Source of the DNA: Capsulimonadales bacterium
Lineage (GTDB): Bacteria > Armatimonadota > Armatimonadia > Armatimonadales > Armatimonadaceae
Direction of reading: 5' to 3'
DNA: 39,034 bases
NCBI GenBank assembly: GCA_033762295.1
Contig: JANRLW010000048.1
Coordinates: 1 to 39,034, forward strand
A program made the position numbers. Every line of letters begins with the position of its first letter. The first letter of the stretch is position 1. This document shows positions 3,001 to 9,000 of this stretch, one piece after another.

Positions 3001-6000
3001 GTGGTCGCGGATCTGGAACGCCTGATCGCCCGTATCTCCACCGGCACCGCCAACGCTCGCGACCTGGTCGCCCTGCGCCTTTCGCTGCTCCAGGTTCCCG
3101 AAGTGGCCGAACGCGCCGCGACGATCGACAACGAGGCGATCCGCTCGCTCTGCGTCGAACTCGACCCCCTGACCGAGGTGACGGACCTGATCGGACGCGC
3201 CATCGCCGCGGAACCGCCGCTCTCCGTGCGGGAGGGCGGCCTGATCCGCGACGGGTACGACGCCGAACTCGACGAACTGCGCGGGCTGTCCCGGGGCGGG
3301 AAGTCGTGGATCGCCGAACGGGAGATGCAGGAACGGGAGCGAACCGGCATCAAATCGCTGAAGGTCGGTTTCAACTCCGTCTTCGGCTACTACATCGAAG
3401 TGACCAGAGCCAACCTGTCGCTCGTCCCGAAGGACTACATCCGGAAGCAGACGACCGCACAGGGCGAACGCTATATCACGCCCGACCTCAAGGAGATGGA
3501 GGCCCGTATTCTGGGCGCGGAGGAGAAGAGCACCGCGCGGGAGTACGACCTGTTCTGCGGCGTTCGCGATGCGGTCGCCGCCCTCGCCCCGGCGGTGCTG
3601 CAGGTCGCGCAGGCGATCGCTCGAATCGATGTCGTCGCCGCTCTGGCGGAGGTCGCCGCGACCAACCGCTATGTCCGTCCGGTCGTCGATACCGGCTCCG
3701 TCCTGGAAATCAAGGCCGGTCGGCATCCGGTCGTGGAAAAGCTCGCCGAAGGCGCGGTGTTCATTCCCAACGATACGCTTCTTGATGATGGCCCGAATCA
3801 GGTACATGTCATCACCGGACCGAACTCCTCGGGAAAATCCACCGTCCTGCGACAGGTCGCGCTGATCACGCTGCTCGCCCAGGTCGGTTCGTTCGTCCCG
3901 GCGGATGCCGCGCGCATCGGAATCGTCGATCGCATCTTCACCCGGGTCGGGGCGCATGACGACCTGGCCGCAGGGCAATCGACATTCATGGTCGAAATGA
4001 CCGAGACCGCCAATATCCTGAACAATGCCACCGAACGCAGTCTGGTCATCCTCGATGAGATCGGGCGCGGCACCTCGACCTTCGACGGCGTTTCGATCGC
4101 CTGGGCGGTGGCCGAATTCCTTGCCGGACGCGGCTGCAAGACGCTGTTCGCCACCCACTACCATCTCCTGAACGATCTGGAAAAATCGCATCCCAATGTC
4201 CGCAACTTCCGGATCGCGGTCAAGGAGACCAACGACCGGATCATCTGGCTTCGTAAGATCGTCGCCGGAGGAACCGACAAGAGCTACGGTATCCAGGTCG
4301 CGCGGATGGCCGGTCTCCCCCCGGAGGTCGTCGCGCGCGCCGGAGAGATCCTGACCGACCTGGAGCGGAACGACCGGGCCAAACGCGACCTGGCGCGACA
4401 CGCCTCCGTTTCCGCGCGGACGCAAAAGATGCAGATGACGCTGTTCGAAGCCGAACCGCACCCGGTACTGGAACGCCTCAAAACGCTCGACCTGACCGTT
4501 CTCTCCCCGATCGAAGCCCTCAACCTCCTGTACGGGATGCAGCGAGAGATCAAAGAGAAGTGACCGCCGGGTCTGCGGATGCCCCGGCGTCCGCAGCATC
4601 CGTGGCGTCCGTGGCGCGTTTCGTGAGAGGTTCCGGCAGGGTCCGGAAGGAGGGAACCCGACCGTCGTGGAAATCTGTAACCGGATTCCCGCAGGGTCCG
4701 GGGCGCATCCCGACCGGTCGGGACGATTTTCGGAAGCGGATAGGATGATACGACGATGTTGCAAGGCGTTGAGCGTTTGGTGGACCTGGTGGGCTTTCGG
4801 CAGGAAGCGTTGAGAACCGGAGCGGAACTTCCGGCGGCGATCCGGGAGGGCGATATCGAGGCGTTGAGCCGGAGCGCGGGGCATTTCGCCGGCACGGCGC
4901 GGGACGGGCAGACGGTTCGGCTGGCGCGGACGATCGGCCTGCCGTTGCGGTATTTTGTCGCCAAGATGTTCCATGGGCCGTTCCTGGTGGTCGCGGACCG
5001 GATCGATACCCTGTACGCATGGTGTCAGCAGGAAAAGATCGGCTGGCAGTTCGACCCGCTGTACACCCGGATGGTCCCGGCGCACTACCTGATCGAGATT
5101 GATCAGATCGGCTGTCCCGACCCGTCGCCGCGTTACCATCGCTTCTTCAACCCGCCGGTGGCCGAAGGCTCGACGGATATCGAGCCGCTGGGCGCGGCCT
5201 ATGCCCGGGCAACCGTCGATGCCCTCACCCGATGGATTTCCGGCGTTCCGGACGGCGAACCGATCGCCGTCGCCTTCTCCGGCGGCATCGATAGTACCTC
5301 CGTCCTGTTGCTCGCCCGCCATGTCCTGACGACCCTCGGACGGGACCCCGGTTGCCTGCGGGCGTTCACGCTCGATCTGGGCGGCGGAGCGGATGTCCGT
5401 CAGGCGGAAGCCGTCGTCCGCGAACTCGGTCTGGCCGATCAATGGGAGGTCATCGCCCCGCCGAACGCCCGTGTCGATCCGGAGGAAGCCATCCGGGTCA
5501 TCGAGGACTACCACCCGCTCGATGTCGAGTGCGCGGCGGTCGCTCTGTGCCTCCTTCGCGGAATTCGCGAAACATATCCGAACCTGAAGTACCTCCTCGA
5601 CGGCGACGGCGGCGACGAAAACCTGAAGGACTACCCGCTGGAGGACTCGGACCTGACCCTGTCGAGCGTCCTCCGCAACCCGTTCCTCTATCAGGAGGGG
5701 TGGGGGATCGACGCGATCAAGCATAGTCAGACCTATTCCGGCGGTTTGTCCCGCGCCTATGTCCGAACGTACGCCCCGGCCCGTCGTTTCGGCTTCGACG
5801 CCTTCTCCCCGTACACCGACCGCGCCGCCATCGCGGCCGCGGTGGCGATCCCCTTTGAGACGGTTCTGAACGGAAGCGTCGAACGGCTCTACACGCTGAA
5901 GGCCGACGTGGTCCGCGCCGGAGTGGAGCAGGTGACCGGCATCACGATGCCGACCCCGGTCAAACGCCGGTTCCAGGACGGGGTCGGCGGCGCCTCGTAC

Positions 6001-9000
6001 CGCCAGTGGCGTGTCAGCAAGGCGTGGTGCCGACAGGTGTTCCTACGCCAGTGGGAGGAGCGACTGCGGGTGGCATGGGACCCGCAGGGCGAACGGCTCT
6101 CCGGCAACGATCTGTCCCGCCCGATCCCCACCGCCCGATGAACCCGTTTCCCCGAACTCCGCTCCCTCTGTTGCCGTCGCGGGTCTACCCGACACAACCG
6201 GGGGCGCGGTCCCACTGGATCGAGACGCTACGCGGTCCGAAGAACGTGGTCAACGCCTCCCTGCCATACGCCTATCTCTGGGAGGAGGAGACCGGTCCGG
6301 ACGGATCGCCCGTCGCCACGGCGACCGTCTTTCTGACGAATCGGGAATGCCCTTACCTCTGCCTGATGTGCGACCTCTGGCGCAATACGCTGGACGAACC
6401 GGTGGCGCCGGGCGCGATCGCCGCGCAGATTCGGCTGGCACTGGCGGACCTGCCCCCTGCCCGGAACGTCAAACTGTATAACTCCGGCAGTTTTTTCGAT
6501 CCCAAAGCCATTCCGACCGGGGATTACGCGGAAATCGCCGAAGCCATCTCCGGTTTCGAGCGAGTGATCGTCGAATGCCACCCCCTTCTGATCGGCGAGC
6601 GCACCCTCACCTTTCGGGACAGGCTGAAGGGTCGACTGGAAGTCGCGATCGGACTGGAAACCGTCCATCCCGAAGCGCTGAATCGTCTTAACAAACGGTT
6701 TACCCCGGACGATTTTCGACGGGCGGCGCGTTTCCTCACGGAAAATGGGATGGATCTGCGGGTGTTCCTTCTGGTCGGCGCACCGTTTCTGAACCGGGAG
6801 GAGAGCCGATACTGGACGGAACGTTCGCTGGAGAGTGCCTTTGACGCGGGCGCGACCGTTTGCTGTCTGATTCCGGTCCGTGGCGGCAACGGCGCGATGG
6901 AAGCCCTGGCCGAAGCGGGGGAGTTTCATCCGCCGTCGCTGAACGCTCCGGAGGCCGCGCAGGAGTACGGCCTGCGTCTGAACGCCGGGCGGGTCTTCTC
7001 CGACACCTGGGATATCGAGCGGTTCTTCACCTGCCGCTGCAGCCGCGAACGGGCGCAACGGCTGGAGCAAATGAACCGGGAACAGCGTATCCCGCCACCG
7101 GTCGTCTGCTCCGTCTGCGATGAAAAGGAAGACCGGGAATGACACCGGAATACGATCTGGCTGTGGTCGGTTCGGGTTTCGGCGGATCGCTGCTGGCAAT
7201 GATCGCCCGCCGTCTCGGACGAACGGTCCTGCTTCTCGAAAAGGGAAAACATCCTCGTTTCGCCATCGGCGAATCGACGTCGCCGCTCGCCAACCTGCTC
7301 ATCGAGGAGATGGCGCATCGCTACGACCTTCCGAACCTGCTGCCGCTGACCTCGTTCGGCCCGTGGCAGCGAACCTTCCCCGAGATCGTCTGCGGATTGA
7401 AGCGCGGGTTCACCTACTACGGGCAGACCGCGAACGAGGCGTATCGCGACTCCGCCGACCGCACCCGGCAGCTGCTGGTCGCGGCCAGTCCGAACGACGA
7501 ACTCGCCGACACGCACTGGCTCCGTTCGGACGTGGACGCGTTCCTGTTGCGGGAAGCGGTGGCGGCGGGCGCGGACTACCGGGACGAGGCCCACGTCGAA
7601 CCGCCGACCCGCGACGGTCGGGGGGCCTGGCTTCTGCGCTGGCGGACGGGCGGCGGAGGCGCGGAGACCGGTGCGCGCGCCCGGCTGATCGTCGATGCGA
7701 CCGGCCCGCGCGGCTGGCTCAGCCGGGCGTTCGACATCCCGGAAAAGCCGTTCTGCGACTATCCCGGAACGCAGGCTATGTTCGGGCATTTTCGCGGGGT
7801 TGCCCGCTGCGATGAGATGCCCGAATACGCGACGCCGGGCGAAACGCCGCCTTACCCGCCCGATGATGCCGCGCTGCATCATGTGTTCGACGGTGGCTGG
7901 ATGTGGGTCCTGCGCTTCGGCAACGGCGTGACCAGCGCCGGGTTCGCGCTGCGGGACGACCTGGCCGATAGGCTGGGACTGCGGGACGGCGAGGCGGGCT
8001 GGCAACGGCTGATGGAACGCTTCCCGACCGTCGGCGCGCAGTTCGCCCGGATCGAGCCGCTGTTTCCGCTGATCTACCAGCCGCGTCTCTCCTATCGCGC
8101 AGCGGGCGCAGCCGGGGACGGATGGGCGTTGCTGCCGTCCGCCGCCGCGTTCATCGATCCGCTGTTCAGCACCGGTATCCCCCTGACGCTTCTCGGCATC
8201 GAACGGCTGGCACGGATACTGGAGGCAGAAACATCGGGAAAGAACCTTGCCGGGCTGTTGACGGAGTACGGCGCGACGACACTGGCCGAGGTCGATGCGA
8301 CGGCGGACTTTATCGGGGGCTGTTACGCCGCCATGCACCGGTTCCCCCTCTTCGCCGCCTATTCCCGGTTCTACTTCGCCGCCGCCAGTTTCAGCGAAAT
8401 GACGCGCCGCCTGGGGAAGCGGGTGCCGGTCGGACGGTTTCTGGCCTCCGATCACCCGACCTTCGGCGCGGCGCTGCGCGAGGGTTCCCGCTGGCTCCGG
8501 CAGCACGGACGAACGGCGGACGAGTCGGAGCGGGCGGCGTTCGACCGATGGGTGAATCAATCCGTCGACGTCCTGAATATCGCCGGTCTGTGCGCTCCGG
8601 GGAAACGCAACTGGTACGGCGTCGATCTGGCGGACGTGGTCACCGGGGCGCACAAACTCGGTTTCACGCCGGAAGAGATGCGGGCCGTGCTCGCCGACGC
8701 CCCCTGGACCGGCGGCGGTCCCCTTCCGGCCGGACCCTGACGGTTATTCGTTCGGGAAGAGGCCGATGGTGCTGCCGTGGATATGGAACCCGATACGCGT
8801 GATATCGCTGACGTCGTCCTGGTCGCCGAACATGTCGTTGCTGACGATCGGCGCATGGCGGAACCGCGCCTGCCGGATCAGTTCGTCGTCGGCGGACGTC
8901 CCGGCGGGCACTTCCCGGACGATATCCCGGTCGACCAGTTGACGAAACCCCGCCCGGTCATCGACATGACGCCCCAGGTTGGCATCGGCGATCATCAGCA

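Follow-up and report, generated by a model that had tools for sequence, protein, structure and literature searches.

What pathway is encoded by an operon that joins an asparagine synthetase-like ligase, a radical SAM enzyme resembling the archaeosine lyase RaSEA and a predicted flavin-dependent halogenase? The question is raised by three genes (Table 1) in the window, as we call the whole 39,034-nucleotide stretch of a Capsulimonadales bacterium that was analyzed. The overlapping operon proposed in the first-pass annotation was recovered, with the ORF limits, the common strand, coding-type GC3 values (0.75 to 0.82) and ATGA stop/start overlaps at 6138-6141 (ligase/radical SAM) and 7139-7142 (radical SAM/halogenase) all in agreement. 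The ligase start agrees with homologues of ~463 aa (coverage 98-100%), and one ligase with 74% identity (P0196) is from Capsulimonas corticalis. An Rfam scan of positions 3500-11000 (E up to 1) gave no match, a promoter scan returned 0 sites, terminators were at chance level only, and no common upstream motif emerged from 98 flanks, the best 9-mer occurring in 9/98. Upstream lies mutS and downstream an NYN-domain gene, both outside the recurring neighbor clusters.

Table 1. Genes and conserved sites of the cassette (window positions)
Feature	Position	Strand	Remark
Ligase gene	4756-6141	+	461 aa
Cys120 in invariant GCPDP motif, degenerate N-terminal domain	5113..5115	+	143/143 ligase sequences
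SGGxDS pyrophosphate loop	5278..5295	+	conserved across ligase sequences
Radical SAM gene	6138-7142	+	334 aa counted from ATG at 6138
CxxxCxxC SAM-cluster motif (C71, C75, C78)	6348..6371	+	159/160 sequences, one gap
Further conserved Cys 299, 301, 324, 327	7032..7118	+	152-158 of 160 sequences
Halogenase gene	7139-8740	+	533 aa
Lys88, at the position of the catalytic PltM Lys87 in the alignment	7400..7402	+	128/128 sequences
W-x-W-x-L motif (254-258), variant of halogenase-type WxWxI	7898..7912	+	conservation in 128 sequences

By sequence and structure model, the first gene encodes a predicted ATP-dependent amide ligase of the AsnB/beta-lactam synthetase (BLS) fold without the N-terminal glutaminase cysteine. 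It matches PF00733 (E 2e-13), and with its model (pLDDT 82) Foldseek ranks BLS first (E 5.9e-13), before AsnB (2.6e-12). BLS and AsnB had been named as the best folds, and in the VIA fold comparison the two tie (AsnB Z 22.3, BLS Z 22.1). No conserved cysteine corresponding to the nucleophile of glutamine-hydrolyzing AsnB was found at positions 1-4 of 143 ligase sequences, and the VIA alignment of the model starts only at residue 41 of E. coli AsnB. S175, D179, D287 and E288 each occur in 143/143 sequences, and thus the SGGxDS and GxGxDE synthetase motifs are present; the GDGGDE motif (282-288) and K403 are likewise conserved, the latter being, from its position alone, the putative catalytic lysine. 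SGGxDS and GDGGDE line up with the matching motifs in the canonical AsnB of the same genome. The description as a glutaminase-less asparagine synthetase-like enzyme therefore holds and, with the glutaminase segment missing and the synthetase motifs kept, an outside amine would be needed. The whole-chain fold, the pyrophosphate loop and the GxGxDE motif are shared with BLS, CarA and AsnB, and the lack of the glutaminase cysteine with BLS. However, identity to these enzymes is just 14-22%, the ligase has its own invariant N-domain motifs (YTRMxPAH and GCPDP), and, unlike for BLS and CarA, no clavam or carbapenem genes are nearby. A search for the ligase among plasmids gave no match.

The radical SAM enzyme is, as judged from sequence and model, a sister family of RaSEA rather than a member, and is related in fold to the queuine lyase QueL. 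The proposed kinship with RaSEA stands as homology, since hhalign aligns the radical SAM core along its full extent with a bacterial above-cut-off TIGR01210 member (99.5%, 275 columns), but membership fails at 87 bits against the curated cut-off of 212. In addition, the ArcS domain PF17884, detected in three archaeal controls, had no match in this genome (94% complete), which encodes a single Tgt. TIGR01210 had been given as the sole NCBIfam match; a faint one to TIGR01212 (MnmL/YtqA, E 0.0084) must be added, and these two are the only ones. The CxxxCxxC motif, reported as invariant, is so apart from the one gapped sequence. The four further cysteines form a probable zinc or auxiliary cluster site, and the TIGR01210 member has cysteines placed much alike. 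In VIA, the model (pLDDT 92.7) has QueL as top match (Z 17.0), with HydE-type and biotin synthase (BioB) rows within 1 and thus tied, and MqnE also closely behind; by phmmer, QueL is matched with E 0.47. The radical SAM profile had no meaningful match among PDB sequences, the ESM Atlas yielded only unnamed clusters from the cassette's own families, and looking for more TIGR01210 members with a link to NRPS genes recovered the query's own record alone.

RaSEA converts preQ0-Lys to archaeosine in complex with its lysine transferase (PMC11298593), YhcC/MnmL converts cmnm5s2U to nm5s2U (bioRxiv 10.64898/2026.05.18.725915) and QueL converts queuine to preQ1 (reviewed in PMC7694415). The cassette enzyme and RaSEA have YNxGSF, VE, GLE, NK, PPF and C-terminal cysteines in common and, as in the ArcS-RaSEA system of archaeosine synthesis in Euryarchaeota, the radical SAM enzyme is always inherited with one amine-transferring partner. 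That partner, however, is an AsnB/BLS-fold ligase and not a TGT-like ArcS, the cluster motif is CX3CX2C instead of the longer loop of RaSEA, and the cassette is bacterial, with halogenase and envelope genes attached. With QueL and MnmL/YhcC the cassette enzyme shares NSGSFF and GxET motifs, but it is ~100 residues longer than QueL, with a C-terminal cysteine cluster, and neither Q-salvage nor MnmM genes are among the recurring neighbors.

The third gene encodes a predicted flavin-dependent halogenase of the PltM/CtcP type. This assignment is borne out by profile searches (PltM E 3e-77; CtcP, the tetracycline 7-halogenase, 6e-72) and phmmer (CtcP 9e-42, PltM 2e-41), and GxGxxG, the catalytic lysine and a WxWxI-type motif are present. 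Lys88 had been proposed as catalytic; its PltM counterpart is essential, K87A being inactive (PMC6424973). The WxWxI-like motif is present too, although its exact family form is W-x-[W/Y]-x-L (W254 and L258 in 127/128 sequences each; position 256 Y in 64, W in 62). Relative to PltM, a phloroglucinol halogenase, the equivalents of the catalytic lysine, Pro48 and Phe90 are retained, but Glu49 is replaced by Leu and the match ends near PltM residue 402, short of the C-terminal hydroxyl-binding residues; the substrate therefore probably differs from that of PltM.

Relatives of the radical SAM enzyme were found with one query in at least 393 GTDB species, reproducing the earlier number, and a profile of the enzyme (E up to 1e-30) gathered 576 clusters at 50% identity. 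In two clades, the three genes lie contiguously in 59/80 and 71/80 loci. Among the 80 best loci of the 393, 75 hold the ligase, 65 the halogenase, 43 a membrane protein, 42 an adjoining ASPIC protein, 40 a TPR-ASPIC orthologue and 14 an ABC binding protein with permease; the counts given before (70, 64, 38, 36, 22 and 12) were lower but drew the same picture. As the sampled genomes are related, such counts are not independent events. Ligase and radical SAM enzyme occur in identical sets of 41/251 Armatimonadota and 6/149 planctomycete genomes, although they lie within 10 kb of each other in only 31 of the 41, and in 3/4 genomes with no ligase beside the radical SAM gene the ligase was located elsewhere. 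The two are thus strictly co-inherited, even where unlinked. The halogenase is common but not always present: it was not found genome-wide in 7/10 genomes with a halogenase-less locus, so the invariant core consists of ligase and radical SAM enzyme, and the halogenase was rejected as an obligate member. The cassette genes are single-copy and often dispersed across the chromosome. Altogether, the data support the trio as an undescribed conserved pathway that several groups of soil and water bacteria have inherited as a whole; literature searches, with most subscription papers and supplements outside their scope and possibly holding a description, found none in titles or abstract openings.

Neither a precursor peptide nor a recurring substrate-supplying gene was found near the cassette. 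The cassette does not resemble a lasso/macrolactam cyclase RiPP system, given that no conserved precursor or B proteins are nearby (the short ORFs that recur across 98 upstream and 116 downstream flanks are pieces or shadows of ASPIC and membrane genes) and that the ligase scores 21 bits against the NF033561 cut-off of 300.

The partner genes lie elsewhere in this genome, as already noted in the first-pass annotation: ASPIC and membrane protein on contig C30, TPR-ASPIC, permease and ATPase on C41, and the binding protein, which has a conserved CxxxC, on C117. Sequence comparison shows the linked membrane protein and propeller to be homologous to the enediyne proteins UnbU and UnbV, respectively. 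The name UnbU, previously based on a weak NQR2/RnfD match and recall, is now backed by a homology search (UnbU to the C30 membrane protein, E 8e-10), and the best match here of Streptomyces clavuligerus UnbV is the ASPIC protein adjoining the membrane gene (E 5e-41; next 2e-29), which falls in the UnbV clade with support 0.92. This pair keeps the V-then-U order of the enediyne minimal cassette UnbL-UnbV-UnbU-PKSE. However, UnbL has no match in this genome, the best PKSE match (28%) is not full-length, covering residues 4-884 only, and the pair, encoded outside the window, can occur apart from the trio. Indeed, the proposed link to the UnbU/UnbV/ABC module is a frequent partnership that can be broken in both directions: 7/41 Armatimonadota and 5/5 planctomycete genomes tested have the cassette without an UnbU-like gene, and five genomes (among them three with 95-97% completeness in 3-40 contigs) have the importer and an UnbU-like gene but neither the ligase nor the radical SAM enzyme, a pattern that fits salvage. 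The importer was found in 0/80 second-clade loci. ASPIC/UnbV propellers are encoded by 47/47 cassette genomes from two samples, 45/47 having four or more matches.

We tentatively favor, at less than an even chance, a stand-alone small-molecule route with a two-step, glutamine-free nitrogen transfer at its core. The ligase, whose fold and motifs are those of a synthetase, would adenylate a carboxylate and couple it to an amino-acid amine (by analogy with ArcS, that of lysine). Like RaSEA acting downstream of ArcS, the radical SAM enzyme would then take a hydrogen next to the coupled nitrogen, so that the C-N bond breaks and a primary amide or amine is left. The halogenase, with its conserved catalytic lysine, would halogenate the same scaffold at an electron-rich aromatic ring, a step that some lineages would skip. 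The product would be diffusible, importable by the co-occurring NMT1/SsuA-type ABC system, and may serve exported ASPIC/UnbV propellers, including the UnbV-UnbU-like pair. We prefer this reading because ligase and radical SAM enzyme are strictly co-inherited, the nearest named relatives (RaSEA, YhcC/MnmL, QueL) remove an N-substituent, no precursor peptide or substrate-supplying gene was found, the importer-only pattern fits salvage and all 47 cassette genomes encode ASPIC propellers. Still, C-N cleavage is an extrapolation, given the 24% identity to the TIGR01210 member, the shorter cluster loop and the tie of QueL with HydE-type enzymes and biotin synthase. Against it also stand cassettes without an UnbU-like gene, ASPIC expansions without a cassette and the second clade without importer, and closure of an intramolecular lactam as in BLS would suit the modeled ligase fold equally well.

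The latter chemistry (BLS/CarA or macrolactam-cyclase type), with the radical SAM enzyme making a C-C or C-S bond or decarboxylating, would give a secondary metabolite of another kind. BLS and CarA within the ligase's top fold group, the weak NF033561 match (E 9e-5) and the HydE-type, BioB and MqnE matches close behind QueL are consistent with it; we nevertheless consider it unlikely, as single-copy, dispersed genes without a recurring exporter, regulator, PKS or NRPS gene are unlike a typical antibiotic cluster, and the radical SAM sequence matches TIGR01210 and TIGR01212 only. About as doubtful is a role in maturing ASPIC/UnbV propellers, the trio building a new cofactor or modifying residues before export. 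QhpD/QhpG and LodB mature quinoproteins in this manner, and anSME matures sulfatases. In its fuller form, which seems no more probable, the trio would make a new, optionally halogenated (or protein-derived) cofactor for exported, CRTAC1-like ASPIC/UnbV beta-propeller enzymes, with dedicated ABC salvage and an UnbU-like membrane partner. Maturation would account for the median ASPIC matches in five Armatimonadota families (4-12 with the cassette, 0-2.5 without), the at least four separate ASPIC clades adjoining it, one radical SAM-ASPIC fusion (P0105), a C-x(5-14)-[YFAST]-C-x-P motif common to many paralogues, QhpG (E 4e-17) and GoxB among the best NCBIfam matches of the flavoprotein, and two Bacteroidota loci that run on into HZS-alpha and cytochrome c peroxidase-like genes. 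However, genomes lacking the cassette also have members of these clades that bear the motif, ASPIC is expanded in some genomes that have no cassette (51/143 planctomycetes, 7/210 Armatimonadota genomes), PltM and CtcP, whose substrates are small phenols, are far better matches than QhpG and GoxB, and the Streptomyces enediyne locus shows no UnbV-type dependence. That all ASPIC proteins need the cassette was rejected on the first two of these grounds.

It is improbable that the cassette modifies tRNA or a nucleobase by a new route, as a bacterial parallel of ArcS-RaSEA. RaSEA, YhcC/MnmL and QueL all act on tRNA or a tRNA base, Elp3 and MiaB are among the Foldseek matches, and inheritance is single-copy and housekeeping-like; but the two-domain fold of the ligase is that of AsnB (Z 22), tRNA PP-loop enzymes reaching only Z 6.9-10.2 with it in VIA, the genome has no ArcS domain and one Tgt, both core proteins are net acidic (median pI 5.6 and 6.1, a weak argument), and such a route would not explain the ties to an importer, to exported propellers and to a halogenase of the phenolic type. 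It is slightly more improbable still that an envelope polymer or lipid precursor is amidated and halogenated, with propellers and membrane protein assembling or turning over the polymer. AsnB homologues do amidate peptidoglycan and polysaccharides, and the neighbors are lipoproteins and the membrane protein, joined in Gemmatimonadota by a SusC/SusD-like pair (12-14 of 80 loci; named from sequence, not a domain scan), yet the recurring companions of the cassette include no glycosyltransferase, flippase or lipid gene. The database label, under which ligase homologues are called asparagine synthase, would imply an ammonia-dependent asparagine synthetase with unrelated neighbors; this is hardly credible, considering 44 bits against the TIGR01536 cut-off of 267, the canonical Cys-bearing AsnB encoded separately on contig C59, and the strict co-inheritance with the radical SAM enzyme.

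The cassette is spread widely among poorly studied lineages, and no product of it has been described. Should the favored nitrogen-transfer route be true, bacteria would have recreated the ArcS-RaSEA logic, in which nitrogen is borrowed from an amino acid and freed by a radical SAM enzyme, around an unrelated ligase, giving a new way of making amides. The halogenase is predicted to be a new family of PltM-like catalysts. The UnbV/UnbU homologues outside enediyne clusters offer a small, PKS-free setting to probe those unexplained proteins; if the cofactor reading is true, the cassette would provide the first biochemical handle on them, and a new cofactor system comparable to PQQ.

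The three reading frames of the trio are coupled by ATGA overlaps, ligase to radical SAM and radical SAM to halogenase. A GTDB scan with the radical SAM enzyme gave 393 confirmed relatives, and the 80 loci taken came from Armatimonadota, Acidobacteriota, Verrucomicrobiota, Planctomycetota and Bacteroidota; a second scan, whose query was built by aligning 20 divergent members, gave at least 595 relatives among the 600 matches listed and 80 further loci, mainly from Gemmatimonadota, Thermoanaerobaculia and Vicinamibacterales. With loci cut by contig ends scored as misses, the ligase was found at 75 of the 80 first-scan and 77 of the 80 second-scan loci, the halogenase at 65 and 76, and the contiguous order ligase-radical SAM-halogenase at 59 and 71. 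One genome holds, besides an intact locus, a second ligase and radical SAM copy broken into pieces with stops (G229:C61:69759-72058).

Coordinates of the trio and of other genes in the window
Feature	Position	Strand	Remark
Ligase ORF	4756-6141	+	ORF of the trio
Radical SAM ORF	6138-7142	+	ORF of the trio
Halogenase ORF	7139-8740	+	ORF of the trio
Coiled-coil protein, 589 aa	8744-10513	-	Convergent with the halogenase, 3 bases apart; faint NYN ribonuclease domain at the C-terminus (E 0.006)
AAA-WD40 repeat protein, 1210 aa	21574-25206	+	
Multi-PAS GGDEF/HD protein, 2133 aa	30127-36528	+	

Among 251 genomes of this phylum, the radical SAM enzyme had matches at E 0.001 in 67, of which the 41 with E < 1e-50 were kept as cassette-type; a TIGR01210 member (1.7e-32) was set aside, as were 25 matches no stronger than E 9e-9. 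The ligase is present in exactly the same 41 genomes and the halogenase in 41, 40 of them coinciding, these being related genomes and hence not independent events. Within 10 kb of the radical SAM gene lie the ligase in 31 of the 41 and the halogenase in 28; some of the wider separations may be assembly breaks. In planctomycetes, ligase and radical SAM share the same 6 of 149 genomes, with the halogenase in all five carriers tested and none in the sixth, and it was absent from seven of ten genomes, of unstated completeness, picked for loci without it. On these counts, ligase and radical SAM form the core, and the halogenase is a frequent tailoring step.

Radical SAM enzymes of the RaSEA, MnmL and QueL type remove N-substituents by a hydrogen-abstraction mechanism. 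The cassette enzyme has CxxxCxxC in 159 of 160 sequences, in which four further Cys are conserved at the C-terminus, and its only NCBIfam matches are TIGR01210 (87 bits versus a cut-off of 212) and, faintly, TIGR01212. Its alignment with a bacterial TIGR01210 protein that scores above the cut-off spans 275 columns, but the cassette enzyme has the shorter cluster loop. VIA placed queuine lyase at the top for the model, level with rows of the HydE type and of biotin synthase, and Foldseek ranked Elp3 and lipoyl synthase above QueL (rank 28). Removal of a substituent from nitrogen is described for the characterised relatives RaSEA (PMC11298593), YhcC/MnmL (bioRxiv 10.64898/2026.05.18.725915) and QueL (review PMC7694415). 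Elsewhere, at L094:4221-10189 (G149), a bacterial protein above the RaSEA cut-off (232 versus 212 bits) immediately follows a C-A-PCP-TE NRPS and is followed by a B3/4 protein that stands alone; here peptide or amino-acid metabolism has apparently recruited RaSEA chemistry; a search for a second NRPS-linked member gave only the query's own record. An 896-aa protein (P0105) joins a cassette-family radical SAM to an ASPIC/FG-GAP propeller, either as a genuine fusion or perhaps through read-through.

The closest solved relatives of the halogenase are PltM and CtcP. Its K88, invariant in 128 of 128 sequences, pairs with residue 107 in the tagged PltM chain; allowing for an offset of 20 residues, this is Lys87, and the flanking residues agree with the K87A primer context in PMC6424973, a passage of which gives K87A as inactive. 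PltM Glu49 is replaced by Leu and the alignment ends before the C-terminal hydroxyl-binding residues of PltM, which makes phloroglucinol an unlikely substrate, judging from sequence. At ten Thermoanaerobaculia loci (e.g., L137:16391-17146), a nitroreductase-family gene resembling iodotyrosine deiodinase sits some 4-6 kb downstream from the halogenase within a housekeeping-gene block, probably as lineage synteny. Close to either the halogenase or the UnbU-like gene, six Gemmatimonadota loci (e.g., L139:7339-7965) encode a membrane protein that is rich in His, about 200 aa long and matches no Pfam family.

At the first 80 loci we counted the UnbV-like propeller at 42, the membrane protein at 43, the TPR-ASPIC lipoprotein at 40 and the NMT1/SsuA-type ABC importer at 14, versus 11, 11, 1 and 0 at the second 80 under the same score thresholds; a looser profile found the TPR protein at 14 of the latter. 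The membrane protein matches annotated enediyne UnbU. The top match of S. clavuligerus UnbV among this genome's ASPIC paralogues adjoins the membrane gene, and FastTree (101 sequences, 12 of the UnbV-like locus sequences retained) placed UnbV in the clade of membrane-gene-adjoining ASPIC proteins with support 0.92. In this genome UnbL had no match and PKSE no full match. Three accessory enediyne genes reportedly take part in making a diiodotetrayne; a passage of PMC9992847 describes them as of unknown function. Of the 251 genomes, 39 carry the membrane gene, 34 of them cassette genomes (one of the 34 by a weak match); for the binding protein, once a weak match was dropped, the figures are 37 and 32. 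Five genomes carry the membrane gene and the binding protein but neither ligase nor radical SAM, and in seven the cassette occurs without the membrane gene, which was also absent from all five cassette planctomycetes tested. The binding protein, whose closest solved relative is 3UN6 (reportedly zinc-bound), has CxxxC in every row covering that region. The cluster of some Acidobacteriaceae also takes in an HMA-domain protein, DUF169 and an AhpD-like protein (L004:7505-8603, L061:14562-15194), which together with the CxxxC is a hint of a connection with metals. On Metabacillus plasmid NZ_CP088246 (L103:9420-10807), a closer homologue of the UnbU type (32% identity) has a redoxin gene as its partner, close to a mer operon, and no UnbV.

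Counted as PF07593 matches rather than exact copy numbers, at least four ASPIC proteins occur in 39 of the 41 cassette genomes versus 7 of the 210 others, a contrast that recurs inside five families. All six planctomycete carriers have 6-10 matches, and 51 of 143 non-carriers at least four (hand count); the cassette-neighbour proteins fall into at least four clades, which also hold members from cassette-negative genomes. Thus the cassette implies ASPIC proteins, and the reverse is not true. A cofactor or maturation system for these propellers is a conceivable but rather unlikely role. At two Bacteroidota loci without halogenase (L024:11510-16578, L060:11289-16442), the cassette leads into ASPIC, an HZS-alpha-domain protein and a propeller plus cytochrome c peroxidase-like protein.

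The ligase matches Pfam Asn_synthase (E 2e-13), and its model (pLDDT 82) fits AsnB and beta-lactam synthetase along the entire chain (VIA Z 22.3 and 22.1). Secondary metabolism in which the ligase closed a lactam and the radical SAM enzyme did other chemistry, to which that fold would be suited, seems about as unlikely as the propeller role. Modification of tRNA or bases, as by the radical SAM relatives, is less probable still: tRNA PP-loop enzymes match the model only at Z 6.9-10.2, and no ArcS domain was found in this genome. Envelope amidation ranks slightly lower, and a plain asparagine synthetase is highly improbable, the TIGR01536 score being 44 bits versus a cut-off of 267 and a separate canonical AsnB being encoded in this genome. 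The alignment starts at E. coli AsnB residue 41, so the Cys nucleophile segment is missing; SGGxDS, GDGGDE and K403 are kept across 143 family sequences, as is Cys120 of a GCPDP motif.

Since the ligase makes no ammonia itself and is always co-inherited with a radical SAM enzyme related to N-dealkylating ones, the simplest reading, a tentative one, is a two-step amidation dependent on an amino acid, whose amine the ligase would add to a carboxylate before the radical SAM enzyme cut the C-N bond; this would be analogous, not homologous, to ArcS-RaSEA. No recurring substrate-supplying gene or precursor peptide was found near the cassette, so the substrate would be drawn from general metabolism, taken up by import or be part of a macromolecule. 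The literature searched contained no published description of the trio or of its link to UnbV/UnbU homologues. Each enzyme class is already known, and the three genes very likely form one functional, undescribed unit.
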